Assembly (NCBI GenBank): GCA_021773235.1
Contig: JAJFKL010000045.1
Span: forward strand, 12,150-76,149
DNA from: Gammaproteobacteria bacterium
GTDB taxonomy: Bacteria > Pseudomonadota > Gammaproteobacteria > Eutrophobiales > Eutrophobiaceae
Reading direction: 5' to 3'
DNA length: 64,000 nucleotides
In this document: positions 97 to 23,136 of the stretch, one piece after another
How the letters are laid out: the number at the start of each line of letters is the position of its first letter
Numbering within the stretch: the first letter of the stretch is position 1
The notes under the pieces: generated by a model
Told to the model about the DNA's origin: nothing
Databases searched by the model: none
What the model saw: the letters and a program-made list of their open reading frames with translations, nothing else
Position numbers and translations under genes: made by a program

Positions 97-525
97 TTAA
101 TGTTGTAAAAACTTATGCAGTCTTGCATCTTTTGTACTGAAATGATTTACAAACCAGTCTTGCAATCGTTCTCCAAACTCATCTTTATCCAGTGACTCTC
201 TTTCTTCATATTCATCCATTATGTCTCTAATACTATCCAATAGTGCTTCATGATCTTCTTTGTGGTCTTCAAATTGATCATATTTCAATTGTCTCATTTC
301 TTTTTCTTCCAATGCAAAATGTGCTGATATTTGCATGAAAACTTCTCCAAGTGCGTCCAACACAGCCAAGGTGGAACCGTCCTTTTCCGCTTCATTATAT
401 AACTCATTAATTAACTCTATTAATTCCTGATGTTCAAAATCGACTTCTTTTATGCCGATTTTAAAATCATCTCGCCATTCTAATAATGCCATTCTATTAA
501 TCTCACTGAAAATAAAACCCGCCAA
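97..525 (-). CDS. Bacteriohemerythrin (hemerythrin-like metal-binding domain protein)
   Basis: 142 aa. WRDDFKIGIKEVDFEHQELI start and later His/Glu/Asp-containing helices are typical of hemerythrin-like domains. Overlaps the upstream gene by 23 nt (same operon). Confidence 0.85.
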   Translation of the reverse strand: MAGFIFSEINRMALLEWRDDFKIGIKEVDFEHQELIELINELYNEAEKDGSTLAVLDALGEVFMQISAHFALEEKEMRQLKYDQFEDHKEDHEALLDSIRDIMDEYEERESLDKDEFGERLQDWFVNHFSTKDARLHKFLQH

Positions 526-1006
526 GGTCTTTTCTAAAATCTATAACAAAAATTTCTTTAGGTTCAATATTGATTACCGTATCACTCTCATAATCGTAAC
601 CCTCTTCTCGTCCACTATCTCTTAATTTTACAATTAACTGGTGTTCACCTGGTTTGACCGAAATCCTTTCATAGATAGAAGCGGAACCATCTTTAGCTAG
701 ACCGGTAGGGTTGTACGACTTACTTAATAAATTTTCACCATCCAACATAACGTCAACATAAAGAGGTACTCTCTCCCTTGGACAATCCATAGGTCGTCGC
801 ATATTGGGGGCTAATGTATTTAATTCTTCCTGTGTAAACTTACGACATTCTTCTTTGCGTTCACTAGCATGGCTAAAACTAACCATAATCAACGCCATCT
901 CAGAATCGTGATAGGTATAGCTCGGCGAATTCGAGAAATACCCTAGCATTAAACCAAAGAGTATAAACGAAACAATCTGACCAAGCAGCTGACTAAACCT
1001 AAGCAT
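503..1006 (-). CDS. Membrane-anchored hypothetical protein
   Basis: 167 aa. One N-terminal TM helix (IVSFILFGLMLGYF) followed by a soluble domain with no motif I recognise. Overlaps both neighbours (translational coupling). Confidence 0.5.
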   Translation of the reverse strand: MLRFSQLLGQIVSFILFGLMLGYFSNSPSYTYHDSEMALIMVSFSHASERKEECRKFTQEELNTLAPNMRRPMDCPRERVPLYVDVMLDGENLLSKSYNPTGLAKDGSASIYERISVKPGEHQLIVKLRDSGREEGYDYESDTVINIEPKEIFVIDFRKDLGGFYFQ

Positions 1007-2573
1007 CGACTTTCTCGCTACTTTTGTTTATTTTATTCTGGTCTTCGAGCTGTGCGGAATCAAGTTTATTCAAACGCAGGCGAAAAGTTGTTAGCTCTTT
1101 AAAAAATTCTTTTCGCCGAGTCATGCCTGCCCAGTATTTACCGATTCGATCCTGGTTTACCCGTTTGCGTATACGGGGATCACGTTGCCCAGCTAGACGC
1201 GCATCAGTCCATTTTATCCCTAGGCGGTAACTGCAGTCACCTTCACGACATCCTGTAAGAAAGACCCCATCAGCCAGTTTTTTCGATAATACAAAATCAA
1301 TAAATGAAGGTGGCAACATACCAATACAAGGCATGGTGACCACACCTACACTTGTATCTGATACTTCCACAGGATTGAGACTGTTATCACAACCGTAAAC
1401 AATAACCCGATCAGTCCCGGTAAGATTACGCGATGCACTAATCGTTTTATTTCTCAATATTTTGATCTTATCCTCCGGTAATTCTATTCCCGGAGATAAT
1501 TCAGACTTCGTTCTAAAGGGTGTCGCCGTTGGACATGAGCCGACACAAATACCACAACTAACACAATGACTGGCATCAACAACAGCTTCCATTTTATAAG
1601 CACTACCATCGCTACGTGGTTCCATATCGATCGCACTAAAAGGGCAGTCCGCAGCACAACGACTACAACCATTGCAATTATCAAGGTGTACGACCGCGAC
1701 TTCAGCACGCTTACCCGGTGGCATCCATGGCACCATCATTAACAACAATGTCGCGCCGATAAGTGCTATCCAGACAGTTAAGCCGGAGACATTATTCATG
1801 ATGGGATAGATTGGCATATAAAACCAATCCAGATTGACTGTGGTGGGAACGATACTTAAATCAGCAGGCGCCTGACTCAACGCTGGTTTTATAAAAGAGA
1901 GTATCAATAGCATGCTAAGTGTCGCTATAGCGAGTTCCTTAGGTGGATTAACTTTGGGCGTAGCATGCCTTTGAATGTGTATCCACATAACAAATAACAA
2001 AATTAGCGGTATAGCAATATGCATGAACACCATCAGCGTGAAAAAACGCCCACTCAATTTGGCATCAGTAAGAAAATTACGCGCGATCGCTTCACCAAAT
2101 ATTGGAACCGCATCTAAAAATTCAGCCGTGGTAATAGCAATATATTGAGCAAGCTGATCCCAAACCATCCAGTAACCGGAAATACCCGCGGTAAATACTA
2201 ACCAGAGCATAGGTATTCCAGTAAACCAGGCAAACCAACGCGAACTTCGGAATCGATCCATGGCGAACTCACGCAACAAGTGCACCATCATCATCACAAC
2301 TAAAGCGTCTGATGCATAGCGATGCAAACTACGCATGATACCGCCGGCATACCATTGTTCATGCGTCAGGTATTCCAAGGACTTATACGCCTGGCTAACA
2401 CCCGTGTCGAAGAATATGTATAGGTAGAGTCCACTAACAACAACGATCCAGTAATAAAACCAACCCAATGCACCCAATTGATAAAAAGGATTCCATTTAG
2501 CGCCAAAAAGAGCATCGAACGAATCTTCAAGATGCTCAAAACATATTCTCAATAACTTCTTTAATACTTCCAC
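999..2573 (-). CDS. Fusion protein: di-haem cytochrome b N-terminal domain + 2x[4Fe-4S] ferredoxin + MvhD/FlpD-like iron-sulfur domain
   Basis: 524 aa. Four His in TM helices (SLHRYASD, MMVHLL, FMHIAIP, MWIHIQRH). Two ferredoxin motifs: CNGCSRCAADCP and CVSCGICVGSCP. C-terminal YGCDNS...PCIGMLPP...GCREGDCSY is typical of the hydrogenase iron-sulfur subunit (MvhD-type) domain. Confidence 0.8.
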   Translation of the reverse strand: MEVLKKLLRICFEHLEDSFDALFGAKWNPFYQLGALGWFYYWIVVVSGLYLYIFFDTGVSQAYKSLEYLTHEQWYAGGIMRSLHRYASDALVVMMMVHLLREFAMDRFRSSRWFAWFTGIPMLWLVFTAGISGYWMVWDQLAQYIAITTAEFLDAVPIFGEAIARNFLTDAKLSGRFFTLMVFMHIAIPLILLFVMWIHIQRHATPKVNPPKELAIATLSMLLILSFIKPALSQAPADLSIVPTTVNLDWFYMPIYPIMNNVSGLTVWIALIGATLLLMMVPWMPPGKRAEVAVVHLDNCNGCSRCAADCPFSAIDMEPRSDGSAYKMEAVVDASHCVSCGICVGSCPTATPFRTKSELSPGIELPEDKIKILRNKTISASRNLTGTDRVIVYGCDNSLNPVEVSDTSVGVVTMPCIGMLPPSFIDFVLSKKLADGVFLTGCREGDCSYRLGIKWTDARLAGQRDPRIRKRVNQDRIGKYWAGMTRRKEFFKELTTFRLRLNKLDSAQLEDQNKINKSSEKVDA

Positions 2574-2576
2574 GTT

Positions 2577-3494
2577 TTACGATGTCCCTGTGATTTTATT
2601 ATTCTGTCGCCATGCTCGCACAATAAATACTGCTATAGCACCTAGAATGAGAATACCCATAGCTATTCCAATAAATATTGAATAATCAAATTCATAACGG
2701 CCACTATGTGGATCATAAATTGTACAAAACAAACGAATATTATTTATCCAACCTTCCACCAGTGTCGATTCAGTGCGGTTACCGAATAGTAATTCTTTTA
2801 ACGGCTCAATCAGTTGTGGAGGTTCATATTTTACACCATAAATTTGCCGATAAACTTTTCCATCCGCATCAAGTAATGTTACCTGTGAAAGATGGTCAAA
2901 ACCTCTGGGTGATTTAAAAAAGATAAATCCCATATCATTACTAAAAGCTTTAATAGTCTCTTTATCAGTACTCAGAAAATCCCAGCCTGAAAAGCTAATA
3001 TTACGCTCACGTGCAAACAAACGCATGCGTTCTGGACTGTCTGCTTCTGTATCAAATCCGATAGTGACAACCGAGAAACTTTCATCGCCTAATGCATCTC
3101 GAGCAACCTCAATGACGTCAGCAAGAGAGTTGGTCAACGTTGGACAGATATGATGACAACTTGTAAAGATCATACTTACAATCAGGGGTTTTCCTCGATA
3201 TTGGGTAATATCGACAGGTTTTTTATCCTGATTAATAAAATTATAACTTTCTATTGTTCTATTTATTGCAGACTGACTAAATTCAAAGGCTTTATCTTTG
3301 TCGTATTGTTTTGCAAGCTGATGACCATCAGTGACCGAATAAGCATTGAGAGAAAAAAGATACAGGAAAACAAAACCAATCTTTTTTAGGGGGTTAATCT
3401 GGTTTGGTTTTTTATAATTTACGCATAGTACTTTAATTAAATAGAGCGACACATGATTCCCACATAATTTAAATAACCAACACATCCAGAACAC
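2577..3494 (-). CDS. senC: SCO1/SenC family copper chaperone with an extra C-terminal TM helix
   Basis: 305 aa. Thioredoxin-fold copper site FTSCHHICPT. Hydrophobic N-terminal anchor and C-terminal TM (IFIGIAMGILILGAIAVFIV). Start uncertain (M1 or M4); overlaps the ctaB end. Confidence 0.8.
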   Translation of the reverse strand: MFWMCWLFKLCGNHVSLYLIKVLCVNYKKPNQINPLKKIGFVFLYLFSLNAYSVTDGHQLAKQYDKDKAFEFSQSAINRTIESYNFINQDKKPVDITQYRGKPLIVSMIFTSCHHICPTLTNSLADVIEVARDALGDESFSVVTIGFDTEADSPERMRLFARERNISFSGWDFLSTDKETIKAFSNDMGFIFFKSPRGFDHLSQVTLLDADGKVYRQIYGVKYEPPQLIEPLKELLFGNRTESTLVEGWINNIRLFCTIYDPHSGRYEFDYSIFIGIAMGILILGAIAVFIVRAWRQNNKITGTS

Positions 3495-4335
3495 ATGCGC
3501 AGAGTAACAACGTCAGCTGTATTAATGAGGCATGGAAATTTTTTCGTGCAATCTCTATTGTTGGTTGACGTACCAAATCAAAACTAGTCTTTAAAAAATA
3601 TAAGCCGCCACTAAGTGCACCCAATAAATATAACCAACCTAGGCCATAAAAATAAGGGAGTATTGAAACCAGTACTAATGCCAACGTATGAGCAAATATA
3701 ATTTTTGCTGCTACCGGCTTTTCAAACACTGCCGGCAACATAGGCACACCAGCTTGCTTGTAATCATTGGCAAATACAAATGCCAGGCTCCAGAAATGAG
3801 GAGGCGTCCAGAGAAACAAGACTATCGCCAATAATATTGGCGCTGGAGATAAGGAAGGGTCAACTACTGCCGCACCACCGAGCACAGCAAAACTACCCGA
3901 TAATCCACCAATGACAATATTTAGCCAAGTTCGTTGTTTTAGCCAAACGGTATAAACAACACCATAGGTGAATGCACCTAGAAAAACATAGAGTGCCGCG
4001 ACTGAGTTGATTGCTATTGAAGTTCCCACCACAGAGATTAGCAACATCAACCCAATAACAGTTAACCAGTATTTATCCGCCTGAAAACGACCTGTTACAA
4101 ACGGTCGATTTCGTGTGCGCTTCATGGTTGCATCTAAATCACGTTCAACAAATTGATTAAATGCACCAGCACTGGCTGATGACATCAGTATGGCTAAACA
4201 AAACAGAAATATCTTCCACGTTTCCGGCAACGGCCCCGGCGTAATTGCGAGACCTGCAAGCCCGGTTATCATTATCGCAAAACCGATCCTGAGCTTACAG
4301 ACTGATACTAACTCTCTAATAACACCGGGCATCAT
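3469..4335 (-). CDS. ctaB: Protohaem IX farnesyltransferase (haem O synthase)
   Basis: 288 aa polytopic protein with the UbiA-family motif NQFVERDLDATMKRTRNRPFVTGR. Confidence 0.9.
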   Translation of the reverse strand: MMPGVIRELVSVCKLRIGFAIMITGLAGLAITPGPLPETWKIFLFCLAILMSSASAGAFNQFVERDLDATMKRTRNRPFVTGRFQADKYWLTVIGLMLLISVVGTSIAINSVAALYVFLGAFTYGVVYTVWLKQRTWLNIVIGGLSGSFAVLGGAAVVDPSLSPAPILLAIVLFLWTPPHFWSLAFVFANDYKQAGVPMLPAVFEKPVAAKIIFAHTLALVLVSILPYFYGLGWLYLLGALSGGLYFLKTSFDLVRQPTIEIARKNFHASLIQLTLLLCACVLDVLVI

Positions 4336-4351
4336 TATGAATGCTCCTGAC

Positions 4352-6046
4352 TTAACGCAGTGGCCAGACTTCTGCTAAGTATTTCCAGTTAACAAAGTAG
4401 TAAAGTACAAAACTCGTAAAAAAGACAACAACCAAAACAATCGTGCCCGGAATCGCAGGATGTTCTTCGTCACCATGCTCGGCAACAACTGCTGCATTTT
4501 CATCGGTAGGTACAGCCGTAGGTGCTTCAGTACTATCAACCTTCTTACCAAAGAATATCGAACCCACTGCAACAGCGATAAACATAGCACCGCCCACCCC
4601 AGCTAAAATTGCACTCATACCATTCAAGCCCATCATCAGATTGGCTGCACCTGGAAAATCATAAGGAAGCACCGCATCAGCCTGAGAAATATCCCAATGG
4701 CGTCTTGGCACACCCAGAGTTCCTGCGCCCATCATGAACACAGAGATACCAGCAACACCCAGTCCGAAGACGTAGGGCTGAAGCTTTGCCATTCCAGGAA
4801 ACATTATCTCTTTTTGAAAAATAAGCGGAATTAATAAATAGGTCACAGCCATAAATGCCAGTGTGGTCCCTGCTACAACGGTCGCATGAAAATGTCCTGG
4901 CACATATATAGTGTTATGAATTATCAGGTTGATTTGCTCAACCCCCATAACAACACCCGATATGCCACCAAGAAAGCCAAACAGTATCAAGGAAACAAAC
5001 ATCCCTGAGAAAGCGGGATTTCCCCATGGGCATTTACGTAGCCATTCAAACAGTCCATTGGTATAGCCTTTACTACGTTGTGCTGCTTCGATCTGTCCTG
5101 GCACAGTCATACCATGAACCATACTTCCGAGTACCGCCAAATAGATGGCATAACTGGTATTAAAGATTTTCCACTCAGAGCTGATACCTGGATCAACTAG
5201 TAAATGATGCGCACTGGCAAGTTGTAGAAACAGTACATAGAGGAGGAAAGCACCGCGACTAACTTTTTCAGACAAGGGTTTTGCACCCAATACCACTGCC
5301 GATATTAAATACCAGATAGAGATATGCGCCGCAACATTGATCTGTTGTGATGAATGTCCAAATGCCCACCATATAGTCCGATACATTAAAGTATCAATAT
5401 GGCTAACATAGCCGATAGACCACAGAAAAGTTGGTATTAGTATGATTGCACCTGATGCAATCGTAAACACAGCAATAATGGCTGCCACCGTTGCACCAAA
5501 GGTTACCAGGGGCACCGAACCTTCATACGTTTTTTCCTGTTTCGCTATTACCAACGTGCCGAAGAAAACAAAGCAACCGATCAAGGCACCCACGGCGAAA
5601 AGTATGACACCTGCGTAAAACGAAGGATCTGCTTTTAATGGCACATAGGATGTAAACATGACACTTGAACCACCCTGTAATACGGCAATATTAGTGACAA
5701 TTGCACCAATCAACATCAAGGCAAAACCAGCCCACGCCCATTTTGGTGTTGCCAGTCGACTCCCTAAAAGTACCGACGAGGCAAAATATAAGACCGCCAT
5801 TTCAAAGAAAATGATCCATACCACCAAGAGATTTATGCCATGTGCGGTAAGCGCAAGATAAAACCAATCTGCAGGTAACAAGTGGACAGCCTTCCAACGC
5901 GTTAATGCCACCATTATCCCAAAGAGTCCACCGACAAGCAGGAAGACTACCGCTACCACGGCGTTTGCCTTAATCAGATTTTCAGCTGATTTATAAACAC
6001 GTAACCCTGTCGTTTGGCATGTTCTGTACTGTTCATTAATTGCCAT
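4352..6046 (-). CDS. Haem-copper oxidase superfamily subunit I, B-family-like, lacking the cross-link tyrosine (candidate NO reductase subunit)
   Basis: 564 aa, about 13 TM. His ligands at TAHGINL (H69), WWAFGHSSQQ (H231), SAHHLL (H280/281) and PGHFHATV (H385/387). Gln sits at H231+4 where HPxVY enzymes have Tyr. Confidence 0.9.
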   Translation of the reverse strand: MAINEQYRTCQTTGLRVYKSAENLIKANAVVAVVFLLVGGLFGIMVALTRWKAVHLLPADWFYLALTAHGINLLVVWIIFFEMAVLYFASSVLLGSRLATPKWAWAGFALMLIGAIVTNIAVLQGGSSVMFTSYVPLKADPSFYAGVILFAVGALIGCFVFFGTLVIAKQEKTYEGSVPLVTFGATVAAIIAVFTIASGAIILIPTFLWSIGYVSHIDTLMYRTIWWAFGHSSQQINVAAHISIWYLISAVVLGAKPLSEKVSRGAFLLYVLFLQLASAHHLLVDPGISSEWKIFNTSYAIYLAVLGSMVHGMTVPGQIEAAQRSKGYTNGLFEWLRKCPWGNPAFSGMFVSLILFGFLGGISGVVMGVEQINLIIHNTIYVPGHFHATVVAGTTLAFMAVTYLLIPLIFQKEIMFPGMAKLQPYVFGLGVAGISVFMMGAGTLGVPRRHWDISQADAVLPYDFPGAANLMMGLNGMSAILAGVGGAMFIAVAVGSIFFGKKVDSTEAPTAVPTDENAAVVAEHGDEEHPAIPGTIVLVVVFFTSFVLYYFVNWKYLAEVWPLR

Positions 6047-6049
6047 TGT

Positions 6050-6595
6050 TTATATCCCCTCGTTATCGACGACATATATCCTGCCGAGCATTGTGTGATG
6101 TCCAATACCACAATATTCATTACAGACGACTCCAAATTCCCCTGTCGTCGTAGGTGTAACTGTGAGCACCATTTCGTAATCAGGATGTATTTGTAAGTTA
6201 ATATTTATCGGCTGCAAAGAAAAACCGTGCATCCAGTCCAAAGAAGATAAGTGAAGTCGATATGACTGACCTTTTTCCAATTCCAGGATTGGCCACCACT
6301 GCCAGAGTCTGGCAATCATATAGACATCTGAACCAGGAGGCGGACGGACAACCGGATAACCGGATTCTTCACGGACTGTATATTTATCCGTCATTGCTTC
6401 AGTTTTTTCAGTGAACTGTTCTGCTGTGATTTTATATGCTTCGTTAGATAAGTTTTGTTCACCATAAGCGTGCCAGTAGATCATCATGAAAAACATAATC
6501 AATCCCCAGACGAAAGCGACGATGACCCAGATAAGCTCGGATTTTGGGACAGAATCATTCCACCAGATCCTGCTTTTTGGAGGGGTAACTGACAT
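6050..6595 (-). CDS. Haem-copper oxidase subunit II with CuA centre
   Basis: 181 aa. N-terminal TM hairpin, cupredoxin domain with HGFSL and the CuA motif CNEYCGIGHHTM. A 3-nt gap separates it from subunit I. Confidence 0.85.
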   Translation of the reverse strand: MSVTPPKSRIWWNDSVPKSELIWVIVAFVWGLIMFFMMIYWHAYGEQNLSNEAYKITAEQFTEKTEAMTDKYTVREESGYPVVRPPPGSDVYMIARLWQWWPILELEKGQSYRLHLSSLDWMHGFSLQPININLQIHPDYEMVLTVTPTTTGEFGVVCNEYCGIGHHTMLGRIYVVDNEGI

Positions 6596-6615
6596 AGTGT
6601 TGTCTCCTTAAATTA

Positions 6616-6792
6616 TTATTTTGCTACAGGGATGGTAATGATTTCCATAATGCCCCAGATAACATAAAAGACAGTTGGAATAGTGACGCCGAGAAAGAGC
6701 AATAGAAAAGGATTATCTATTATCTGTTGCATGACTGGTATTCGTTCAGATTCTGTGTCGCTATCGCTAGACACGCCATTTTCTTCAGACAT
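6616..6792 (-). CDS. Small single-TM protein, first gene of the oxidase operon (possible extra subunit)
   Basis: The track ORF 6616..6843 is trimmed here to the internal ATG at 6792, which has a GGGGG Shine-Dalgarno 4 nt upstream. Acidic N-terminus, then TM FLLLFLGVTIPTVFYVIWGIMEI. Confidence 0.45.
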   Translation of the reverse strand: MSEENGVSSDSDTESERIPVMQQIIDNPFLLLFLGVTIPTVFYVIWGIMEIITIPVAK

Positions 6793-6913
6793 ATCGCCCC
6801 CTAATATATTAAAAGATCGTAGATATACTCTACTTTCATACATTTAATTTGAGTGCGACAATTTGTCCACTCAATTATAGAGAGCCAATCTATGCTGTAT
6901 TTAATCTATATGT

Positions 6914-6927
6914 CTTGACCTAGATCA
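6914..6927 (-). promoter_or_regulatory. FNR/Dnr-type box (TTGAC-CTAG-ATCAA, 9/10) upstream of the oxidase operon
   Basis: Read directly from the sequence. A TAGATT -10-like hexamer lies about 31 bp downstream on the minus strand, which is class II spacing. Confidence 0.55.
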
Positions 6928-6972
6928 AGAAGAATGGTGGAATAATACAACGAACTTATATTTCTAATATAT

Positions 6973-7155
6973 TCAACCACTTAGGGCGCGTATTACAGTA
7001 AAGGAACTCACGGCAAGTATCAAAATAATTACAAAAAAGACTAGACTGCGATACTCAAATTTTCGGCCCGAGGCTTTTTCAATCTGCACCAGTATCCAGT
7101 CTGAACCGAGATAAAGGATAATTCCGGCTAAGGTGTATGCCACTATTTCAGTCAT
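6973..7155 (-). CDS. Small two-TM membrane protein (hypothetical)
   Basis: 60 aa with two hydrophobic helices. AGGAT-like ribosome-binding site upstream. No recognisable motif. Confidence 0.35.
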   Translation of the reverse strand: MTEIVAYTLAGIILYLGSDWILVQIEKASGRKFEYRSLVFFVIILILAVSSFTVIRALSG

Positions 7156-7288
7156 TTGATTTTATCCTGATTCATTGTTTCATAAGGTCATGGTAATAAT
7201 GAATTTGCATTACTCTGTAATTTATTATTTACTCAATTCATAATTTAAAACAACCACTCATTTTAAAATTGTAACGCCTTAATAAACT

Positions 7289-8272
7289 TTGCTTGTATCA
7301 ATCATGCAATTCCTTAAAAGCAATCACTATCCAAAGAAATGTTTTTTTCTTTTGAATTGTAGCGCCTTAATCATGTCGTTACTGATTGTATTTTTAAGCA
7401 CACACATCAGGCTCGGAGAAGCGGGCTTGGGTTGCTCCCCATGGCCTGATTGTTATGCACAGCTCTCTTTTGCTGATGGTCCCAAAGGACTTCAAATACC
7501 GGACTCCGAATTTAAAATATTTCGGTCTATGCATCGCAGCATAGCAAGTATATTGGGTCTTAATATTTTAGTTATCATGTTAATAGCACTTTGGTTTCGC
7601 AAAACAACATCACCGTTATTACCAATATTGATGTTTCTAGTTGTTCTTTTTCTTTCAATATTAGGAATTGCGACACCGACAAGAAGTTTACCCCTTGTTA
7701 CATTGGGAAATATTCTAGGCGGTATAGTTTTGTCAGGTCTTGTATGGAGACAAATCCTGTCGACTAAAGACAGACCGAAAAAATCCGCACCCTTTATTTT
7801 GTTTCTAGTATCTATAACACTGACAGTGCAACTGATCAGTGGTGCCTGGGCAAGTGCAAATTACACGGGATCTGCCTGCCCGAAATTATTATCATGCACC
7901 TATACGAATGACATAACAGGCAACCTGCTCGATAGCTTAAATGTATTACGCAAACTAACACTGGATAGTGATTGCCATCTGATACTGAATGAAACATCCA
8001 GCATTATTCAATTTAACCATAGGCTCATCGCCGTAATATTATTAATAATAATTGTTGTAGCCTTATGGAAAGTAAGACGTGAATACCCCTCTTTACTCAA
8101 ACCATTAATGATTGTCAGTGTTGTTTTCTTTGCTGAGTTTATTCTCGGGGTCGTTAATGTATTAACTGAAATGCCGTTATGGACAAACACACTGCATAAT
8201 TTATTAGCAGTGGGATTATTATTTGCTACGATTAATTTAACGATGCTAATTCATCGCAATAGTGGCCATTAA
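7289..8272 (+). CDS. ctaA: Haem A synthase (COX15/CtaA family)
   Basis: 327 aa, about 8 TM. Cys pair GLGCSPWPDC, a second pair CPKLLSC, and conserved His in SMHRS, FNHRL and LHNLL. Start uncertain (TTG at 7289 or ATG at 7304). Confidence 0.75.
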   Translation: MLVSIMQFLKSNHYPKKCFFLLNCSALIMSLLIVFLSTHIRLGEAGLGCSPWPDCYAQLSFADGPKGLQIPDSEFKIFRSMHRSIASILGLNILVIMLIALWFRKTTSPLLPILMFLVVLFLSILGIATPTRSLPLVTLGNILGGIVLSGLVWRQILSTKDRPKKSAPFILFLVSITLTVQLISGAWASANYTGSACPKLLSCTYTNDITGNLLDSLNVLRKLTLDSDCHLILNETSSIIQFNHRLIAVILLIIIVVALWKVRREYPSLLKPLMIVSVVFFAEFILGVVNVLTEMPLWTNTLHNLLAVGLLFATINLTMLIHRNSGH

Positions 8273-8296: not shown

Positions 8297-8725
8297 ATGA
8301 GTATTGTTTGGAATAATAGAAAAAACTGGGTAAAAAGTGCACACAATACAAAATGGTGCCTGATTGGTTGTTCTATTGGAGATTTTGGTACGATTGCTTA
8401 TTTTCAGTTCAGCGAGCATAGCTTAACAACTATTACCGTTATGCTATTAGCTATGTTAAATGGCCTGTTAACAAGCATCTTACTTGAGACTATTATTTTG
8501 TATCGTTCGAGCTTCAGTTTACGAGATGCATTTATGACTGCTATTGGTATGAGTTTTATCTCCATGTTGGCAATGGAGACCGCAATGAATCTAACAGACT
8601 ATATGTTGACTGGTGGGGCGATATTGACTTGGTGGGTAATCCCCATTGCACTGTTTGTCGGTTTTATAACACCTTGGCCTTATAATTATTGGCGCTTACA
8701 AAGACATGGAAAATCTTGCCATTAA
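8297..8725 (+). CDS. Small 4-TM membrane protein, possibly DUF4396-like
   Basis: 142 aa. WCLIGCSIGDFG motif in the first TM. The family assignment is from memory only. Confidence 0.45.
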   Translation: MSIVWNNRKNWVKSAHNTKWCLIGCSIGDFGTIAYFQFSEHSLTTITVMLLAMLNGLLTSILLETIILYRSSFSLRDAFMTAIGMSFISMLAMETAMNLTDYMLTGGAILTWWVIPIALFVGFITPWPYNYWRLQRHGKSCH

Positions 8726-8811: not shown

Positions 8812-10182
8812 TCAACTTTGTATTTGTTCCGTTGATTTATTTAACATCGCTTTGATCACAATAACAATAAACATAAAACCACCAACCGCAGACAGTAACC
8901 CACCTATTCCCATTACGCCCATTCCGGCAATACGCTCTATTGAATCCAAACCCTGTGCAGCGCCAGCAACTTTTCGTTGAACACCGTATCCCCCAGACCA
9001 GACCAGACCGGCAATATGGAGAAACTGTCCTGAGGCATAGAACCAAAGCTGTATTTTCGAAAGCTTGAAATTAACTTTGATAAAACCCAAGGCGGGTAAT
9101 AATTGATAACAAAGCCCCATCAATGCCAATGAAACACCAACAATACAACCATGGTAATGCGCAGGGATCTTGACGTTATTGCCATCAATCATGAAACCCA
9201 TCATGCCCCCTACTCCGAATAACATTAACGAAGTCAGTAAGGCAGCATACGCTGAAGATCCTTTAGCTGAATCTACTTTCTTTTGAAACAGTGTAAATAA
9301 TATCGCCATACTCAACGGAAATACGGCAAGGCTTCCGCCAAAACTCATCAACATAGTAAATATTTGACGATGAGAAATATCTGTAACGTCATACGCATAG
9401 TAAACAAGTGGTGTCGCAAATATTGAGAGCAAACCAACACCAAACAAAAATAAGGCAACTCTCGGACTTAATGGTAGAGAGAGTCCAGCACTCGATAATA
9501 ACCATAACCAGGCCACCATCATTAACAAAGTATAGGTAAATTGAAGTACGTGTCCCCCACCCCAGAAAAGGAGTTCGTAATAAACTTCACTGACTAATTG
9601 AATAGGCAAACTAATGTATGACCAGACAAAGGCTGCCAGCGCGACAAAAACGCCAATCGCTGCACAATTTAATCCAAATCGAATAACACCTTGACCGCTA
9701 ATCGTTTCCCCAACCTTAGTCATTGCACTCATACTGAATATAACTTGCAATCCGATTCCCGCACCGAAAATAACTAGGCCAACAAGAAAAAGTGAATCAT
9801 CCAACACTGGAATATAATTACTCATTAGTGCATTGGCACTGCCCATAAAAGGTGAAATAGTAATTATCAGGGTTCCTAGAAGTACAACAATAAAACTCAA
9901 TCGAGCAAGCCATGGAAATACAGGACGACTATTTAGGCTCCATAGGACACTCGCAAAAGATAATATCCACACTAAAGAAGACAGGTTGACATGTATAACC
10001 AGAGCTGTGTGGAAGAAATCAACGAATGGAATAAGTTCACCGACTATCGGTGTTCTGGCAAGAACCAACAATACTGAGAAAATTCCTGCCCCAAATAAAG
10101 TAAGTATAGCTAACCAGAACCAGGCAACTGCCAGATCTCTTCTATAATCAGTTGGCACGTCAAGTACATATTTAAAAAACAT
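8812..10182 (-). CDS. Divergent NorB/CcoN-like (haem-copper oxidase subunit I-like) 12-TM protein lacking the HH metal-ligand pair
   Basis: 456 aa. FFHTALVIH (H58/H64), LFWGGGHVLQF (H211) and PAHYHG (H342/H344) match the spacing of NorB/CcoN ligands. There is no HH doublet anywhere, and the expected region reads PLVYYAYDVTDISHR. Confidence 0.7.
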   Translation of the reverse strand: MFFKYVLDVPTDYRRDLAVAWFWLAILTLFGAGIFSVLLVLARTPIVGELIPFVDFFHTALVIHVNLSSLVWILSFASVLWSLNSRPVFPWLARLSFIVVLLGTLIITISPFMGSANALMSNYIPVLDDSLFLVGLVIFGAGIGLQVIFSMSAMTKVGETISGQGVIRFGLNCAAIGVFVALAAFVWSYISLPIQLVSEVYYELLFWGGGHVLQFTYTLLMMVAWLWLLSSAGLSLPLSPRVALFLFGVGLLSIFATPLVYYAYDVTDISHRQIFTMLMSFGGSLAVFPLSMAILFTLFQKKVDSAKGSSAYAALLTSLMLFGVGGMMGFMIDGNNVKIPAHYHGCIVGVSLALMGLCYQLLPALGFIKVNFKLSKIQLWFYASGQFLHIAGLVWSGGYGVQRKVAGAAQGLDSIERIAGMGVMGIGGLLSAVGGFMFIVIVIKAMLNKSTEQIQS

Positions 10183-10205
10183 ATCTAATCAGTGACGCTT
10201 ATTAG

Positions 10206-10700
10206 TTAATAACTCAAAATAGACTTTTTATTTGAATCTGATTTTATAAACACCAGACCCATTGCTAAACCAAACAAGAGTTTTGAGATCAAGGTCACTA
10301 TAAGAGGCATTAAGGAAATAAATGATGGATTGAGTATCGGTAAAACAACAAAGAAATTAACAACCCACACAATGGCGAGCGTTGTAAAACTGCATACAAT
10401 AACACTACGGTTACCAAATTGACGAGCTACTGATTTTAATATTATTGCATTAAAAGAAATGGCTAATATCAGTGACAGTATCAAATGGAACAGGATACCA
10501 AGCATCGGTGCATAATAGGAGGTCGCTGTGAAAGGCAATAGTGTCACTGATATTTCTCGCGCTACATTTGTCGCACTAACTGAACTCAGGGAGCTATATA
10601 GACTAACCCAGAAGATTTCCATCATGCCACCAACTATTCCGGCTGTAATCACAGTTACATCTAAACTATTAATCTCGCTGCGGGAATATTTATTCTGCAT
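10206..10700 (-). CDS. Polytopic membrane protein (hypothetical), between nirN and the NorB-like gene
   Basis: 164 aa, 4-5 predicted TM helices, no recognisable motif. Same strand as its neighbours, with short gaps. Confidence 0.5.
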   Translation of the reverse strand: MQNKYSRSEINSLDVTVITAGIVGGMMEIFWVSLYSSLSSVSATNVAREISVTLLPFTATSYYAPMLGILFHLILSLILAISFNAIILKSVARQFGNRSVIVCSFTTLAIVWVVNFFVVLPILNPSFISLMPLIVTLISKLLFGLAMGLVFIKSDSNKKSILSY

Positions 10701-10743: not shown

Positions 10744-12324
10744 TTAATGACTGGTGCCGCTGGATCTCGTAATTTTATTATAGACATTATATTTCCCAGA
10801 AGGCTTTTTCATCGGGAGTCGTTTAATCTCTTCGAGTGAATTAGCATCATAAATTATAATAGCACCATCGTTATCCCAAATACTCAATATCGCATAGCGT
10901 CCATCTTTTGTGAACTCAACATGCGCTGCTGTTTTACCAGGTTCCGGCTTGAGTGTTTTTACAATTTCCAAAGTGGCTTTGTCGATAATATGAACGACAT
11001 CTTTATTTGGCCCAAAGAACACATCGACCCATGCATAAGGTGTTTTTTCATGACTACGCATAAAGAACCCCGGTCCTTGTGTGTCAATACGTTTAATCGT
11101 CTTCCAGTCATTCATATCAATGACACTAACAACACCGTCTTTCAGGTTTGGGGTGGCGAGTATAGGTTTACCTTGGTATTCCCAAGTAATCCCTGAGCCC
11201 ATATGAGGTAAGCCCGGAAGATCAAGTTCTGAGTCTTTCTTTCCCAGAACCAAATCAACAACCTGGCCATTCTTTGAATTTCTGGCAGCCCCAATCAAGT
11301 ATTCATATTTCTGATCAAAGAAGAAGTCATCTAGATAATCATCCAACTCTATACGGCGCACTGGAAAAGGTTCTTGTTCCGGTGGCCCTTCATCTCGATG
11401 GTCATGTACCCAACCATAAAATGGCGGGTTATCTGAATAAGGAATTTCCCAAACTTCAGTAATGTCTTTTAATGCAGCAATAAAACTTTCACGCGGCCCT
11501 GCATCATAAACAGCACTAACACGTGAACTGTTTCCTGAATTATCTTTTACCTCGATAAGTTTGACCGGTGATAAGTCAGAGGTATTGAATATAACCAGCG
11601 TATGCGGCAAATAATTCGCGGCAATCACGTAACGACCATCACTGGATGTTGCAATGTTGCGTGTGTTTATTCCTGCACGAACTTCTGCCACTGTTTTCAG
11701 GTTATACATATCAAATTTTGATATCCAACCATCTCTCGACACAAAGAATACAAAGCGACCATCGGGTGAATATTTTGGCCCACCATGTAATGCATGTCGT
11801 GTTTTAAAACGGTGAATGGGTTCAAAGCGATCACCATCCAATACTGTTGCATGATGGTCGCCTGTTTCTACAACCAGAAACAGATTGAGAGGGTCAGCAT
11901 CAAATGTTGGTTTATTGCTTAATTGATCGTCCTTGAAATATTGAACGCGAGATTGCGTTATTTCTTTCATTCCCCACGCTGGCATTTCTTTTAATGGGGT
12001 ATAAATAAGATCTACCAGTAATGAAATTTCCTCATCATTTAGCTTACTGCCAAATGCAGGCATTTGCGTTGCTGCTAATCCATCACGTATCGATGCTGCA
12101 GCTTTTTTAGGTCTGACACGTTTTAGGTTTTCCGGGAGTAATGCCGGGCCAATACTGCCGAGACGATCCTGACCATGACATTCGGCACAATTATTTTTAT
12201 ACAATTGGGATACATCTGATTCTGCATAGACAGGAATCAGTCCACTTGTAATTATAATTAATAAAATTGAATTTAAGGTATTGAATCTAGATAACAACGG
12301 CATCGTTTGTGTTTTTCTCTTCAT
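10744..12324 (-). CDS. nirN: Cytochrome cd1-family protein NirN (dihydro-haem d1 dehydrogenase)
   Basis: 526 aa. Signal peptide, haem c motif CAECHG, then a d1-type beta-propeller paralogous to NirS/NirF. Lies after nirJ, as in Pseudomonas nirJEN. The start may be M8 (12303). Confidence 0.8.
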   Translation of the reverse strand: MKRKTQTMPLLSRFNTLNSILLIIITSGLIPVYAESDVSQLYKNNCAECHGQDRLGSIGPALLPENLKRVRPKKAAASIRDGLAATQMPAFGSKLNDEEISLLVDLIYTPLKEMPAWGMKEITQSRVQYFKDDQLSNKPTFDADPLNLFLVVETGDHHATVLDGDRFEPIHRFKTRHALHGGPKYSPDGRFVFFVSRDGWISKFDMYNLKTVAEVRAGINTRNIATSSDGRYVIAANYLPHTLVIFNTSDLSPVKLIEVKDNSGNSSRVSAVYDAGPRESFIAALKDITEVWEIPYSDNPPFYGWVHDHRDEGPPEQEPFPVRRIELDDYLDDFFFDQKYEYLIGAARNSKNGQVVDLVLGKKDSELDLPGLPHMGSGITWEYQGKPILATPNLKDGVVSVIDMNDWKTIKRIDTQGPGFFMRSHEKTPYAWVDVFFGPNKDVVHIIDKATLEIVKTLKPEPGKTAAHVEFTKDGRYAILSIWDNDGAIIIYDANSLEEIKRLPMKKPSGKYNVYNKITRSSGTSH

Positions 12325-17540: not shown

Positions 17541-17873
17541 TTACTCAACGATAATCGTACCGATCATATCTTCATGAGGTTCGCAACGATAAGGATAGGT
17601 GCCCGGTTTGTCGAATGTCCTCTCCCATGTTTCTTCTGGAAAAATGTACTCAGCTTCAGGAAAGCCTTCAGCTTCAAACCAGACACTGTGATATTGACGT
17701 TTCTCTACGTTCAGCCATTTAACGGTGGTTCCCACCTTTACTGTAACGGGCTCTCCGTTTCCATATTGGGAATCTTTAATTTCAACGATAACAGTCTCAG
17801 CAAAAACGGAAACAGCGCTCAAAGAGAAACATAATGCTAGTACAACATTATTAATCAATAGCTTTGTGTTCAT
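17541..17873 (-). CDS. Small blue-copper protein (cupredoxin, amicyanin-like loop)
   Basis: 110 aa. Signal peptide. Type-1 Cu ligand pattern: H in QYHSVWF, and C-x2-H-x2-M in YRCEPHEDMIG. Confidence 0.7.
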   Translation of the reverse strand: MNTKLLINNVVLALCFSLSAVSVFAETVIVEIKDSQYGNGEPVTVKVGTTVKWLNVEKRQYHSVWFEAEGFPEAEYIFPEETWERTFDKPGTYPYRCEPHEDMIGTIIVE

Positions 17874-17946
17874 TTTCTTATCCTTCTAGTTGTGTGTCTC
17901 TGATTTGACATACTGAAAGTAGAAAATACTTATAAAAATATCAATA

Positions 17947-19689
17947 TTATTGTTTTACTGCATTGAGTTCAGCTTCGTCATTATCAAAACCTAGTTTATA
18001 ACCTAGAGATACATGATGGTAACGACCATTGGTATAATCATCATGGATTGCAAAACCAAAGTTATATACTTGATCAGTAACCAAACTAACATCACCTGAC
18101 TTATCAGAAACAAGTTTGCGTTTCATCACGATAGTCCAAACACCATCAGACAAACTGGATGTAGACTCTGCACCCTGACCACCTTCCATATAACGTTGTT
18201 CAAGAATGTAGCCATCTTCAGATTTGCCAGTGCCAGCCTGATAACGAATCAGATCCATGAAATGACCTGCTTCCAGTTCAGCTTTGATTTCATCTTCATT
18301 CTTAAGTTTGTCCCAACCACCTAATTTTTTACCGCCACGTCCCTTGAGTTCAATTTTGGTACGACTCTCAGTAATGAACTTACTAATACCTTGTTCAAGA
18401 TTCAGAGCTAAACCACTTGCAGATAAATCGTCTGCGGTCGGCTCAAGAGGCATACCTTTCGCATCAATATGACAAGTCCCCCAGCAACCTGCCCTGTCAG
18501 CGTAAGTAACATCATCAGTTGCTAACATAATGGCAAATTTTATCTGGTTATCAGCATCCATCTTGCCACCATCAACAAAAGGCGCAGGCGTGTGCGCTGT
18601 TTCTGGAAATTGGAAGCGCATATAGAGATTTTCTCCATCATGGGTAGCTCGAACACTAACAGGGATACTGCCTCGTTTATCGGGTATTACTGTATCCGTT
18701 TCTGCCAGATACTCATGCTCTCCGGAAACGATTAGCTCCCCGATATCAACAGTCTCTTCGTCGTGACATTCGAAACAACGATCTCCCGAATTAAAAGCTC
18801 GCTTACCACTATGGTTTTTACCTAAGGTCCATTCCATTGAAGCTTGTCCTGGATAAAAGATATTAATTAATCGTTCAGGTGCCTTTTCCCAATCAACACC
18901 AGATGAGTCCGACGCTGCAGATGCAGGAGCAGCCTCTGTAACTTCTTCAGCGACGGCTGTTTCCTCTTTAGCGACTTCTACTTTTTTAGGTTCTACAGCA
19001 GCTGCTTTTGTTTCTTTTGGTTTTTTGTCTGCATTCATGAACTTATCATAGGCCTCAGGTATAGGGCGTATGAAATCAGGGTTGGGTTTTTCCAGTTCAT
19101 CTTTTTCTTCTTCGGTTAACTGGTCATGTACTTTCTTATGCGCAATACCCTTATGACAATCAATACAGGTCTGGCCTGTTTTCATTGCATTATAATGTTG
19201 TTTACGAGCACGCGGTTTTTGTGCTGCCGGATCCATTGTCGATATTTCATGGCAATTACGACATTCTCTGGAATCGGATGCTTTCATCCGTTTCCACTCA
19301 CTTTTGGCCATGTGTAGACGGTATTTTTCGAACTTTTCTGGCGTATCGATCGTACCCATTACTTTGTGCAATAACTCATTACTCGCCTGTATTTTACGTT
19401 TTATCTTATAAAGCCAGGGACGAGGAACATGACAGTCCGGGCAACCAGCCCTGACACCACTTCGATTTGCATCATGAATCGTACCTTTATATTCCTGATA
19501 CACATTATCTTCCATTTCATGACACGAGATACAAAAATCCATTGTATTCGTTGCTTCCATTCCCGTATTAAAACCGCCCCAAAAAATCACTCCGATAAAC
19601 ATGAAGAAAATGGCAACACCCAAGGTAGTACCAAAAATAATTTTTCGGTTAAGAAAACTGGAAAATATATGATTATCTGGTCGTGTCAT
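17947..19689 (-). CDS. nirT: NapC/NirT-type tetrahaem quinol dehydrogenase fused to a C-terminal haem-binding (EB_dh/DOMON-like) domain
   Basis: 580 aa. N-terminal TM; CISCH, CPDCH, CRNCH and CIDCH motifs. An Ala/Glu/Lys-rich linker is followed by about 310 aa carrying CFECH and CWGTCH, and [16 protein letters not shown]. Confidence 0.85.
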
Positions 19690-21557: not shown

Positions 21558-22874
21558 CTAGAATTTAATCTGTCCCCATATCCATGTCTTGGTGACATCA
21601 GAAGCTCGACTTCCTCCTCGAGCAATATTGGTTGCATTGGTATCGGCATCATAAAATCCAACTTTTGCACCCACGGTGTAGTGTTTTTTAAATGTCTTTA
21701 CCAACAACAAGTCAAGTTCATCTCCATAGTCGTACCCCAAATTATCCGACTCGATCATATGGTAAGAAGCAATAAACTTGGCGCCAAACGCCTTAACCAC
21801 TGCTGTGAAATAAGCATCTTCGATACCGTCACCAGGTGTTGTAAGGAATCTATCTGTCCAACCCTGAAAAGCGTGACCTGTAGCGAGTGGCGTTCTGAAA
21901 GAATTAGTGCCATTGCCTGTGAGCACTTCATAATCGAACTTCAAAACAATTGCCTTAATAAAGTTACCCGGTACATATTTAATACCGACCTCACCAAGAT
22001 AATAATCTTCATCAACGTTAGCAGTATTGTCTCCATAGTCTTCCTGAGTTGCGTATTCGCCGGCATAGAGAAGCTTCAACTTTTCCGAAACGGGATATCC
22101 ACCGCTGATGCGCCCACCATAGGTCTCTGTAGAATTTGCTGTAGAATTCTCAAAGTCTAAAAGGTATGCGTAACCTTCTAGTTTGGCGTAATTAAAGCGA
22201 TCATATTTAAGGTTGATAAAATGCGAATCACTATCGAAATTAGCCCTTGCACTGATAACGGCTTCATCGGTAAAAATACGATTGACGTTCCATGAATAGG
22301 CATAATTAATTGTTGTATACGGCAATGATTTATTTTGGAAAGTAAATGCATCATGATTTTGCCAATTCTGACGCCACAATACAGTACCCATAAAACGGTG
22401 AAACGGTGCATTTCGGTAAGTAATGATCTGGCGTCCCAGTTTAAATGTGCTTCCATTTAAAAACATACCTTCTGTACCGGTATAACTGATGAAACCCTCA
22501 AGCAAGTCTGTTTCTGACGGATCAGCAACCACAGCAAATTGCGTTTTGGCGTTGGAACGTCCGGTTCCATCATTAAAATCATCCTCAAAGACATCACTGA
22601 CATCCTGCCCTAAAATACGTAGACCAAAACCGTGGAAACTGCCGGTGGTATAACCCAAGGTTGTTCTTATAGTAGAGGCATTTGCCTGATCGGTTGCGGC
22701 ATTATCATCCACATGCTCAAAACGATAACGGGCAGAAAAATCGAACTTTCCTCCCTTTATTGCCTCCCAAAGGGGGTCATCACTGCCCTCAGCCAAGACT
22801 GACTGACAAGATAGTGCGACGAAGATAGACACAAGATACTTACTCACGCACTTAAAAGTGCTGAACTTGTTCAT
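21558..22874 (-). CDS. Outer-membrane beta-barrel protein (porin; AlgE/alginate-export-like by recollection)
   Basis: 438 aa. Signal peptide ending VLA-EG. Alternating amphipathic strands, aromatic-rich, and a C-terminal ...WGQIKF typical of OMP termini. Confidence 0.7.
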   Translation of the reverse strand: MNKFSTFKCVSKYLVSIFVALSCQSVLAEGSDDPLWEAIKGGKFDFSARYRFEHVDDNAATDQANASTIRTTLGYTTGSFHGFGLRILGQDVSDVFEDDFNDGTGRSNAKTQFAVVADPSETDLLEGFISYTGTEGMFLNGSTFKLGRQIITYRNAPFHRFMGTVLWRQNWQNHDAFTFQNKSLPYTTINYAYSWNVNRIFTDEAVISARANFDSDSHFINLKYDRFNYAKLEGYAYLLDFENSTANSTETYGGRISGGYPVSEKLKLLYAGEYATQEDYGDNTANVDEDYYLGEVGIKYVPGNFIKAIVLKFDYEVLTGNGTNSFRTPLATGHAFQGWTDRFLTTPGDGIEDAYFTAVVKAFGAKFIASYHMIESDNLGYDYGDELDLLLVKTFKKHYTVGAKVGFYDADTNATNIARGGSRASDVTKTWIWGQIKF

Positions 22875-22955
22875 TTTATTATTCCTCCGAATATCAAGTA
22901 TTATTAATAAATTTTTAGATTGGCCACATAATATGATTGAATCAACAAAAATTAC

Positions 22956-22969
22956 TTGATGCAGATCAA
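22956..22969 (-). promoter_or_regulatory. Perfect FNR/Dnr box TTGAT-GCAG-ATCAA upstream of the porin-nirS unit
   Basis: 10/10 match, read directly. A TATTAT -10-like hexamer lies about 31 bp downstream on the minus strand, about 82 bp before the porin ATG. Confidence 0.65.
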
Positions 22970-23122: not shown

Positions 23123-23136
23123 TTGATTCAGATCAC
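23123..23136 (+). promoter_or_regulatory. FNR/Dnr-type box TTGAT-TCAG-ATCAC (9/10) upstream of the membrane hemerythrin
   Basis: Read directly. TACAAT at 23159..23164 is 32 bp from the box centre (class II spacing). Confidence 0.5.

Follow-up and report, generated by a model that had tools for sequence, protein, structure and literature searches.

A haem-copper oxidase-like protein family that keeps a single CuB histidine and accompanies haem O/A synthesis and eNOR genes

RESULTS

Gene arrangement at the locus

In the 64,000-nt stretch of gammaproteobacterial DNA analysed here (the window; contig JAJFKL010000045.1 of assembly GCA_021773235.1), there is one gene, downstream of nirN, that encodes a 456-aa membrane protein related to subunit I of haem-copper oxidases (HCOs). 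An earlier note, made from the sequence of the window, had described this protein as a NorB/CcoN-like oxidase relative without the HH metal-ligand pair, accompanied by a 164-aa membrane partner. The gene and its closest neighbours are as follows.

8812..10182, minus strand: CuB-less HCO subunit-I paralogue of an OccS-like family, 456 aa (open reading frame, Pfam, AlphaFold2 model and alignments)
10206..10700, minus strand: four-helix membrane protein of a small orphan family, 164 aa (open reading frame, model and homologue search)
10744..12324, minus strand: nirN (cytochrome c plus d1-type beta-propeller)
8297..8725, plus strand: DUF4396 membrane protein, 3′ of ctaA and convergent with the 456-aa gene
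7289..8272, plus strand: ctaA (haem A synthase), convergent with the 456-aa gene and a frequent neighbour of its family

The first three open reading frames (ORFs) lie on one strand, with the 164-aa ORF 43 nt after nirN and the 456-aa ORF 23 nt after the 164-aa ORF. The 456-aa protein has His residues at positions 58, 64, 211, 271, 342, 344 and 389 and zero HH doublets; its motifs are LFWGGGH ending at 211, AHYH at 341-344, and PLVYYAYDVTDISHR at 258-272. The analysis confirms the length, the 12 transmembrane (TM) helices, the lack of HH, the His and motif positions and the two gaps given in the earlier note. Equally correct was its remark that a NorC, CcoO or CuA partner gene is missing: no cupredoxin, NorC or CcoO gene adjoins the 456-aa gene in the window, and the nearest CuA subunit gene (6050..6595) belongs to a neighbouring eNOR-type enzyme. 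A dedicated subunit II of any of these kinds (cupredoxin/CuA, NorC, CcoO) was found neither in the window nor, as a specific companion, in the 80 + 80 related loci described below.

Placement of the 456-aa protein as a diverged eNOR/B-family paralogue

The 456-aa protein matches a single Pfam family, COX1 (PF00115), with a score of 63.6 bits (cut-off 34.8; E 2e-17), which places the oxidase-like reading far above chance; the scan gave no match to NnrS (PF05940) or CcsA/CcmF (PF01578). NCBIfam holds no model for either the 456-aa or the 164-aa protein. The AlphaFold2 model, built with 35 homologues, has a pLDDT of 84, a pTM of 0.88 and 12 TM helices, and its comparison with the PDB by Foldseek returns, at E<1e-3, solely HCO subunit I chains. 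The top match is Thermus ba3 subunit I, a B-family protein (E 1.3e-7, TM-score 0.75), followed by A-type, cbb3 (3mk7, E 9e-7) and cNOR (4xyd_A, E 1e-5) chains, with TM-scores of 0.65-0.76 over the ba3, aa3, cbb3 and cNOR structures. Searches of the PDB sequences with phmmer and with family profiles gave no matches; fold comparison alone succeeded.

Within the superfamily, profile alignment by hhalign joins the 456-aa family to the family of the neighbouring eNOR subunit I (Prob 99.9, E 1.3e-33, 26% identity). Furthermore, a family hidden Markov model (HMM) of 142 diverse members scores eNOR-type subunits at 158 and 174 bits, and it does not match two A-type COX1 sequences or one cbb3 CcoN sequence even with filters off. 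Taken together, the hhalign and HMM matches indicate that the 456-aa protein derives from the HCO superfamily's eNOR/B-family branch, of which it is a diverged paralogue, and is not NorB/CcoN-like. The NorB/CcoN-like HCO of the earlier note thus stands as to the HCO subunit-I fold (AlphaFold2, Foldseek) and falls as to the branch, the HMM matching eNOR and ba3 ranking first.

The comparison with known enzymes agrees with this placement. With eNOR subunit I (PMC11214002) the 456-aa protein shares WxxGHxxQ, the helix-X HxH pair and the R-R/K propionate motif; eNOR has all three metal-B His, Gln at the Tyr position and a CuA subunit II, whereas the 456-aa protein has F215, no HH and no subunit II. 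With cNOR NorB and cbb3 CcoN it shares the superfamily fold and the length (~450-470 aa), and the resemblance in His numbering is coincidental: there is no sequence-level match, no FeB Glu at H+4, no HH, no helix-VII Tyr and no NorC or CcoO.

The family is large. A profile search yielded 1599 clusters at 50% identity with E<=1e-3, 722 of them at E<=1e-30, and we take the family to comprise at least 722 such clusters. More than 6900 homologues were found, publicly annotated as ‘cytochrome c oxidase subunit I’ or ‘cbb3-type’, and a scan of one genome per GTDB species found a relative in at least 576 species. Across Gamma- and Betaproteobacteria, column identity averages 66%; judged from its sequences, the family is evidently under strong purifying selection.

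Both haem sites are kept and the metal-B site is remodelled

Residue conservation was counted over 142 representatives of 50%-identity clusters. In the hhalign alignment with eNOR, H64 corresponds to the helix-II low-spin haem ligand, H211 to the helix-VI metal-B ligand, H342 and H344 to the helix-X HxH pair, and R403-K404 to the RR pair that binds the haem propionates. The haem ligands are nearly invariant (H64 in 141/142, H342 and H344 in 139/142 each), as is the propionate pair (R403 136/142, K404 137/142). On the distal side, H211, W207 and G210 occur in all 142 representatives, Q214 in 141 and E203 in 131. By this alignment, the bis-His ligation of the low-spin haem by H64/H344 and the proximal ligand of the high-spin haem, H342, are kept. 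For the low-spin ligand, ‘H58 or H64’ had been proposed; H64 fits, and H58, present in 44/142, does not.

By the same comparison, exactly one of the three CuB/FeB His residues, H211, is kept by the family. HH doublets are sporadic, occurring in 14/142 members at no fixed column, and residue H+4, the position of the cross-linked Tyr or Gln, is F in 109/142 (the window protein reads H211-V-L-Q214-F215). Since two metal-B His residues and the cross-link Tyr/Gln position are gone, canonical CuB/FeB cannot bind. The HH pair falls opposite S270-H271 in the hhalign register, which requires an 11-residue gap, and opposite V260-Y261 in the ungapped register with equal 37-residue spacing; because neither pair is conserved, we left the choice of register undecided. 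The 456-aa protein hence lacks the full set of three metal-B His residues of an HCO, and the candidate substitutes V260/Y261 and S270/H271 are not conserved.

These counts separate two suggestions of the earlier note. That the ligands of both haems are kept and the binuclear site is remodelled is supported across the 142 representatives. By contrast, a two-His, Tyr-assisted site is local to the window sequence: H271 is present in 39/142 and Y261 in 75/142, and residues 255-276 are free of His in 63/142. As no second or third metal-B His is conserved, such a site is not a feature of the family.

The 164-aa protein is not a conserved partner

The 164-aa protein models as a four-helix membrane bundle, and a PDB fold search with the model gave no match (best E 1.5). 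Its sole Pfam match, YqhR, is weak (20.8 bits, below the cut-off of 27) and was reproduced in one of 31 homologues. We found 74 homologues, which lie after an eNOR cluster without an adjoining 456-aa family gene, by nar/cbb3 genes, or in unrelated places. In the 80 loci of the 456-aa family the protein is absent, even at E<10. The partnership with the 456-aa protein that had been suggested is therefore not conserved.

The family is associated with haem O/A synthesis genes and haem-a HCOs

To describe the gene context, we took the loci of the 80 best matches to the 456-aa protein, a set biased toward it, and called neighbours by tblastn with the window proteins. The set comes from Gamma- and Betaproteobacteria plus one Nitrospirae metagenome-assembled genome (MAG), and four cultured strains are among it. 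Cultured carriers of the gene include Noviherbaspirillum sp. ST 5-3, Seongchinamella sediminis U0301, Quisquiliibacterium transsilvanicum DSM 29781 and Pelomicrobium sp. G1. Within 10 kb of the family gene (X in the gene orders below) lie sco1 in 61 loci, eNOR subunit I in 53, ctaA in 51 and ctaB in 40; eNOR subunit I and X occupy the same operon in 53/80 genomes. The immediate upstream gene on the same strand encodes a 167-aa protein in 45/80 and a cytochrome b-FeS protein in 13/80 (together 58/80). The cytochrome b-FeS gene is near X in 67/80 loci, and in seven Burkholderiales loci a second cytochrome b gene follows. Genes are usually ordered II - I - (ctaB) - sco1 - cytochrome b-FeS - 167 aa - (hemerythrin) - X - ctaA. 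As a side observation, about 67/80 related genomes likewise have the cytochrome b-FeS gene paired with that for the 167-aa protein.

In the window and its closest relatives the eNOR block is split, and X stands behind nirN both here and in L004. Over the whole set, nirN is the immediate upstream gene in 1/80 loci and lies within 10 kb in 6/80, and no more than 14/80 have d1 genes in that range; the position behind haem d1 genes is thus not conserved, contrary to what had been assumed. In L002, a near relative, X stands behind nirK, a NirV-like gene and sco1 in place of d1 genes.

Several loci depart from the usual order. In the Nitrospirae MAG (L076), the order is COX3-SCO1-COX2-COX1(A-type)-ctaB-X-Rrf2 with no eNOR nearby; in other outliers without eNOR, X faces ctaA-sco1-ctaB by an A-type oxidase, or faces COX3/SCO1. 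In Deltaproteobacterial MAGs (L171, L086), the order is II - eNOR I - 44/48-aa ORF - X - ctaB - sco1, so that ctaB directly adjoins X, as it does in the A-type oxidase operon of L076. Two paralogous modules of one genome (L172 and L173) stand alone; they read X - ctaB - monohaem cytochrome c and are divergent from genes for NifU, ferredoxin, DUF1858, ScdA_N and Mrp (Fe-S cluster assembly/repair), with no full-length HCO within 8 kb. No cytochrome b of any kind is present in the contexts L076, L010 and L172/L173. Two fusions were found. P0196 (L088 2-2287) joins an N-terminal di-haem cytochrome b without an FeS part to X and was seen once, on a 3.9-kb contig; P0306 (L086 2629-4875) joins X to a C-terminal haem O synthase, CtaB, and is weak evidence because it is unique among 250 relatives. 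Overall, the family is associated with ctaB/ctaA and haem-a HCOs, with varied cytochromes beside it.

The duplicated modules contain a further gene. Proteins of 134-140 aa with a Pfam COX1 match and an HVHF motif, resembling HCO helices X-XII, are encoded at L172 6554-6958 (minus strand) and L173 6695-7117 (minus strand), between NifU/ferredoxin and DUF1858/ScdA_N/Mrp and divergent from X-ctaB-cytochrome c; this one Thermodesulfobacteriota MAG (GCA_040961615.1) has two copies of the entire module.

An Occ-type subfamily and its relation to OccS

At least six clusters (50% identity) carry a 13th TM helix and a C-terminal TPR domain weakly similar to the TPR of CcmH/CycH; following the 13th helix at the C-terminus, this tail should be periplasmic. 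A second set of 80 metagenomic loci, seeded with (and thus biased toward) this TPR subfamily, gave 69 resolved loci, with an occ-type context in 36/69 and a haem-A/eNOR-type context in 20/69. The recurrent Occ operon reads NHL - NHL - multihaem cytochrome (780-940 aa) - ResB-like - CcsA - X(±TPR) - thioredoxin-like - histidine kinase - sigma-54 regulator, and its thioredoxin-like protein carries WCPPC. Such operons, with an OccP-like multihaem cytochrome and a short ResB-like protein, are widespread in metagenomes (L091-L170, e.g. L122, L133 and L135). Apparent CcsA::X or X::thioredoxin fusions (L126, L136, L103) were set aside as unconfirmed, the ORF calls conflicting with the tblastn frames. 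The window protein shares 27-40% identity with the Occ-context proteins (lowest E 2e-88).

OccS of ‘Candidatus Dechloromonas occultata’ (occA-S) keeps the His ligands of haem a and haem a3 and one CuB His and has lost the Tyr, and most OccS-like sequences have lost the HH pair; OccS was described by alignment only and taken, as a guess, for a CcoN-like terminal oxidase or proton pump (10.1101/695007). The 456-aa family has the same signature, keeping the His ligands of the two haems and the CuB His of helix VI but not the Tyr or HH, and the metagenomic Occ loci reproduce the occ cluster, with NHL proteins and an OccP-like cytochrome of ~780-940 aa followed by the HCO-like gene. From the shared signature and operon, with OccS compared by its published description, we infer that the 456-aa family is the OccS family. 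Unlike OccS, the window protein sits in a nir/eNOR/ctaA context, with no Occ cluster and no TPR tail. Our literature search for this family found nothing relevant beyond the one OccS description (2020). The kind has thus been glimpsed before as OccS; the size of the family, its eNOR ancestry and its main genomic association are undescribed until now.

The neighbouring eNOR operon

The closest canonical relative of the 456-aa protein is encoded 2.8 kb away, in a gene cluster from which ctaA is divergent.

6050..6595, minus strand: eNOR-type subunit II (cupredoxin), with an intact CuA motif CNEYCGIGHHTM
4352..6046, minus strand: eNOR-type subunit I, closest canonical relative of the 456-aa protein
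3469..4335, minus strand: ctaB (haem O synthase, UbiA family)
2577..3494, minus strand: SCO1/SenC copper chaperone
999..2573, minus strand: cytochrome b (N-terminal type)::2x[4Fe-4S]::FlpD/MvhD-like fusion
503..1006, minus strand: 167-aa protein, one TM helix plus a beta-rich domain
97..525, minus strand: hemerythrin-domain protein, at the end of the eNOR operon

The cross-link position is diagnostic, with Q in eNOR, Y in oxidases, E in c/qNOR and N in s/bNOR (PMC8756737, Table A4). In the subunit I of the window, the motifs are GH231SSQQ235, HH at 280/281 (possibly one residue further) and HxH, with Gln at the position of the cross-link Tyr; GHSSQQ occurs in 49/49 homologues. An assignment as the sNOR of ammonia oxidizers (norSY-senC-orf1) was considered and ruled out, the residue at the Tyr position being Gln (eNOR) and not Asn. 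Positions 97-8272 thus hold a complete eNOR-type operon, which standard annotation would call cytochrome c oxidase. A Ferrigenium preprint suggests a supercomplex of cytochrome b-like proteins with eNOR, and the 167-aa protein is probably its ‘eNOR scaffold protein’. The main text of Murali et al. 2024 (PMC11214002) makes no mention of a second HCO-like gene in eNOR operons.

The 44-48-aa ORF of the Deltaproteobacterial operons encodes a single helix (...APGTFVLALIFL.TF...YF.NFKYLS..W) between eNOR subunit I and the HCO-like gene (L171 7797-7931, L086 2473-2619) and may be a small eNOR subunit. The eNOR subunit I of the window has a similar C-terminal sequence (...FVLYYFVNWKYLAEVW), suggesting that this helix has undergone fusion or fission.

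The nir operon and predicted expression of the 456-aa gene

Upstream of nirN on the same strand lie nirJ, nirH/G/L/D, nirF and nirC (Pfam), and further up a cupredoxin gene, a NapC/NirT::EB_dh fusion and nirS. A scan of both intergenic gaps, nirN/164-aa and 164-aa/456-aa, found no terminator-like site, which makes co-transcription of the 456-aa gene with nirN plausible. Two boxes of the FNR/Dnr kind, whose function is predicted from sequence, bear on expression.

22956..22969, plus strand: perfect FNR/Dnr-type box TTGATGCAGATCAA, 5′ of the first nir-operon gene (start 22874)
6915..6928, plus strand: FNR/Dnr-like box with one mismatch, in the divergent eNOR/ctaA promoter region

The 456-aa gene is probably expressed here by read-through of the Dnr/FNR-controlled nir operon, for which the box at 22956..22969 would likely be the control point, reaching to 8812.

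The same region holds three further features. At 17541-19689 the nir operon encodes a 580-aa protein in which a NapC/NirT tetrahaem domain is fused to an ethylbenzene-dehydrogenase-like (EB_dh) haem domain, followed by a 110-aa cupredoxin; together they could form an unusual electron-input module for NirS. Within 21558-22969, the first gene after the perfect box encodes a 438-aa protein with a signal peptide, the C-terminus ...GQIKF and no Pfam family, probably an outer-membrane beta-barrel; its homologues adjoin the HCO-like gene or ctaA in L007, L013, L038 and L048. Finally, hemerythrin-domain genes stand on both sides of the denitrification region, at 97-525 (eNOR operon end) and 23266-23847 (divergent from the nir operon), the latter with an FNR-like box carrying one mismatch upstream, at 23123-23136.

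DISCUSSION

A haem-only enzyme as the favoured reading

We tentatively favour the reading that the 456-aa protein may be a haem-only, redox-active enzyme handling NO or O2, with a probability of about 0.35. Specifically, the protein would be redox-active and the final user of the haem O/A that the adjacent ctaB/ctaA provide. Having no cupredoxin subunit of its own, it would receive electrons at the low-spin haem from a donor encoded alongside: here, either the cytochrome b-FeS protein or carriers of the nir/eNOR system in the periplasm, and elsewhere, a monohaem cytochrome c or the Occ multihaem cytochromes. NO or O2 would bind the lone high-spin haem in a distal pocket of H211, Q214 and E203, and the protein would act as a haem-only NO/O2 reductase or scavenger alongside eNOR.

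The distal motif WxxGHxxQ is 99-100% conserved, as tightly as the haem ligands, which favours ligand chemistry at the high-spin haem over passive storage of the cofactor. The stand-alone X-ctaB-cytochrome c modules suggest that X itself uses haem O with a cytochrome c as donor, and the donors encoded beside X are varied (cytochrome b-FeS, the cytochrome b of fusion P0196, cytochrome c, OccP-like multihaem protein). A link to NO is suggested by the Fe-S-repair, hemerythrin, Rrf2 (L076), nir and eNOR neighbours and by the FNR/Dnr boxes.

Several points weigh against such an enzyme. We know of no HCO without CuB/FeB that acts as an NO or O2 reductase, and oxidase variants lacking CuB generally show no activity. 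Within the eNOR operons of Gamma- and Betaproteobacteria, X belongs to the accessory half, behind ctaB, sco1, cytochrome b-FeS and the 167-aa gene and by ctaA, a position that assembly factors usually occupy. In the Occ context, X lies between CcsA and the thioredoxin-like gene, often with a periplasmic TPR tail, and such tails are typical of cytochrome-maturation chaperones.

Replacement of an HCO active-site His has precedents in gNOR, in which Asp replaces one such His (PMC11214002), and in NOD; both keep two or three metal ligands, whereas the 456-aa family keeps one. gNOR, unlike the 456-aa family, also has a cupredoxin-fold subunit. NOD, much longer at about 800 aa, is derived from and closely related to qNOR, whose single polypeptide unites subunits I and II, and is proposed to need no external electrons. 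A catalytic branch without metal B and without an external donor, in the extreme case performing NO dismutation (2 NO -> N2 + O2) at the lone high-spin haem o/a and feeding O2 to the O2-dependent haem A synthase CtaA of the neighbouring gene, is a very unlikely variant for the 456-aa family. The Ferrigenium preprint asks how the haem-A-dependent eNOR matures in anoxic denitrifiers; NO dismutation, if true, would explain it.

Haem delivery, electron relay and other explanations

The main rival is a haem-delivery or assembly factor, which we consider possible though doubtful. A dead subunit-I mimic would transiently hold new haem O/A (haem b in the Occ subfamily) and pass it on, either to the catalytic subunit as it forms or to the machinery of cytochrome c maturation, as a functional analogue of Surf1/Shy1 or Thermus CbaX. 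These small proteins are likewise placed among the ctaB/ctaA/sco1 genes of haem-a enzymes, so that the analogy rests on gene context; Surf1 and CbaX have no known sequence or fold relation to the 456-aa protein, and Pfam gives no sequence relation to them or to CcmF/CcsA. Consistent with delivery, the constant neighbours of the family (ctaA, ctaB and sco1 in the counts above) are biogenesis genes, which the outlier loci retain by an A-type oxidase. The Occ-type gene, flanked by ResB-like/CcsA and the WCPPC protein, and the CcmH/CycH-like TPR tail of at least six clusters fit the same role, as does the X::CtaB fusion, although it is a singleton. On the other hand, the stand-alone modules have no client HCO nearby, Deltaproteobacterial X comes directly after subunit I and before ctaB, and a carrier needs no distal WxxGHxxQ of such conservation. 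The sensor or haem-handling alternative of the earlier note is conceivable but unproven.

A pure electron-transfer or quinone-linked module, in which the two haems would relay electrons from the cytochrome b-FeS protein (or the quinone pool) to periplasmic acceptors (the eNOR CuA subunit or Occ multihaem cytochromes) without substrate chemistry, is unlikely. It would account for the cytochrome b-FeS or 167-aa companion immediately upstream in 58/80 loci, for the second cytochrome b of the seven Burkholderiales loci and for fusion P0196, in which the FeS part is absent; the Occ cluster, moreover, is otherwise without an obvious inner-membrane quinol dehydrogenase (10.1101/695007), and the supercomplex of the Ferrigenium preprint points the same way. 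A relay, however, would make the five-coordinate high-spin site with its conserved distal His/Gln/Glu superfluous. Furthermore, no conserved quinol-site residues were identified (H58 is present in just 44/142), contexts free of cytochrome b exist (L076, L010, L172/L173), and the fusion was seen once, on its short contig.

A denitrification-specific role, in which the protein would act with the 164-aa protein behind nirN in haem d1/NirS maturation (e.g. precursor transport) or in NO/O2 sensing, is most improbable. In its favour, the three genes share a strand with gaps of 23 and 43 nt and no terminator-like site, the close relative L004 also has nirN upstream, and we know of no route by which a haem d1 precursor crosses the membrane. 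Against it stand the rarity of nirN as upstream neighbour and of d1 genes within 10 kb, the nirK, NirV-like gene and sco1 found instead in L002, the absence of the 164-aa protein from 80/80 loci and the lack of a signalling output domain in the 456-aa protein; to our knowledge, classical nirS denitrifiers also do without this gene in their nir clusters. Synteny essentially excludes a part for the 456-aa protein in haem d1 biogenesis. That the gene is a non-functional relic of a duplicated eNOR subunit I gene, as the loss of two of three metal-B ligands might suggest, has a negligible chance given an intact ORF, more than 6900 homologues, 722 clusters at E<=1e-30, 66% mean column identity and strictly conserved key residues.

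Implications

HCO classifications admit only sequences with all conserved His (PMC3084760), a demand by which the 456-aa clade would have been filtered out of oxidase and NO-reductase surveys. Metagenome counts that take the family as oxidase or NorB are in error of annotation. The HCO-like gene is a standard part of eNOR operons in Proteobacteria, and much of the N2O formed in the environment is attributed to eNOR. Should the protein prove to be a haem chaperone, B-family-type enzymes would have in it their missing factor for haem-a insertion. If, as in the reading we tentatively favour, it turns over NO or O2 with no second metal present, the minimal HCO active site would be redefined.

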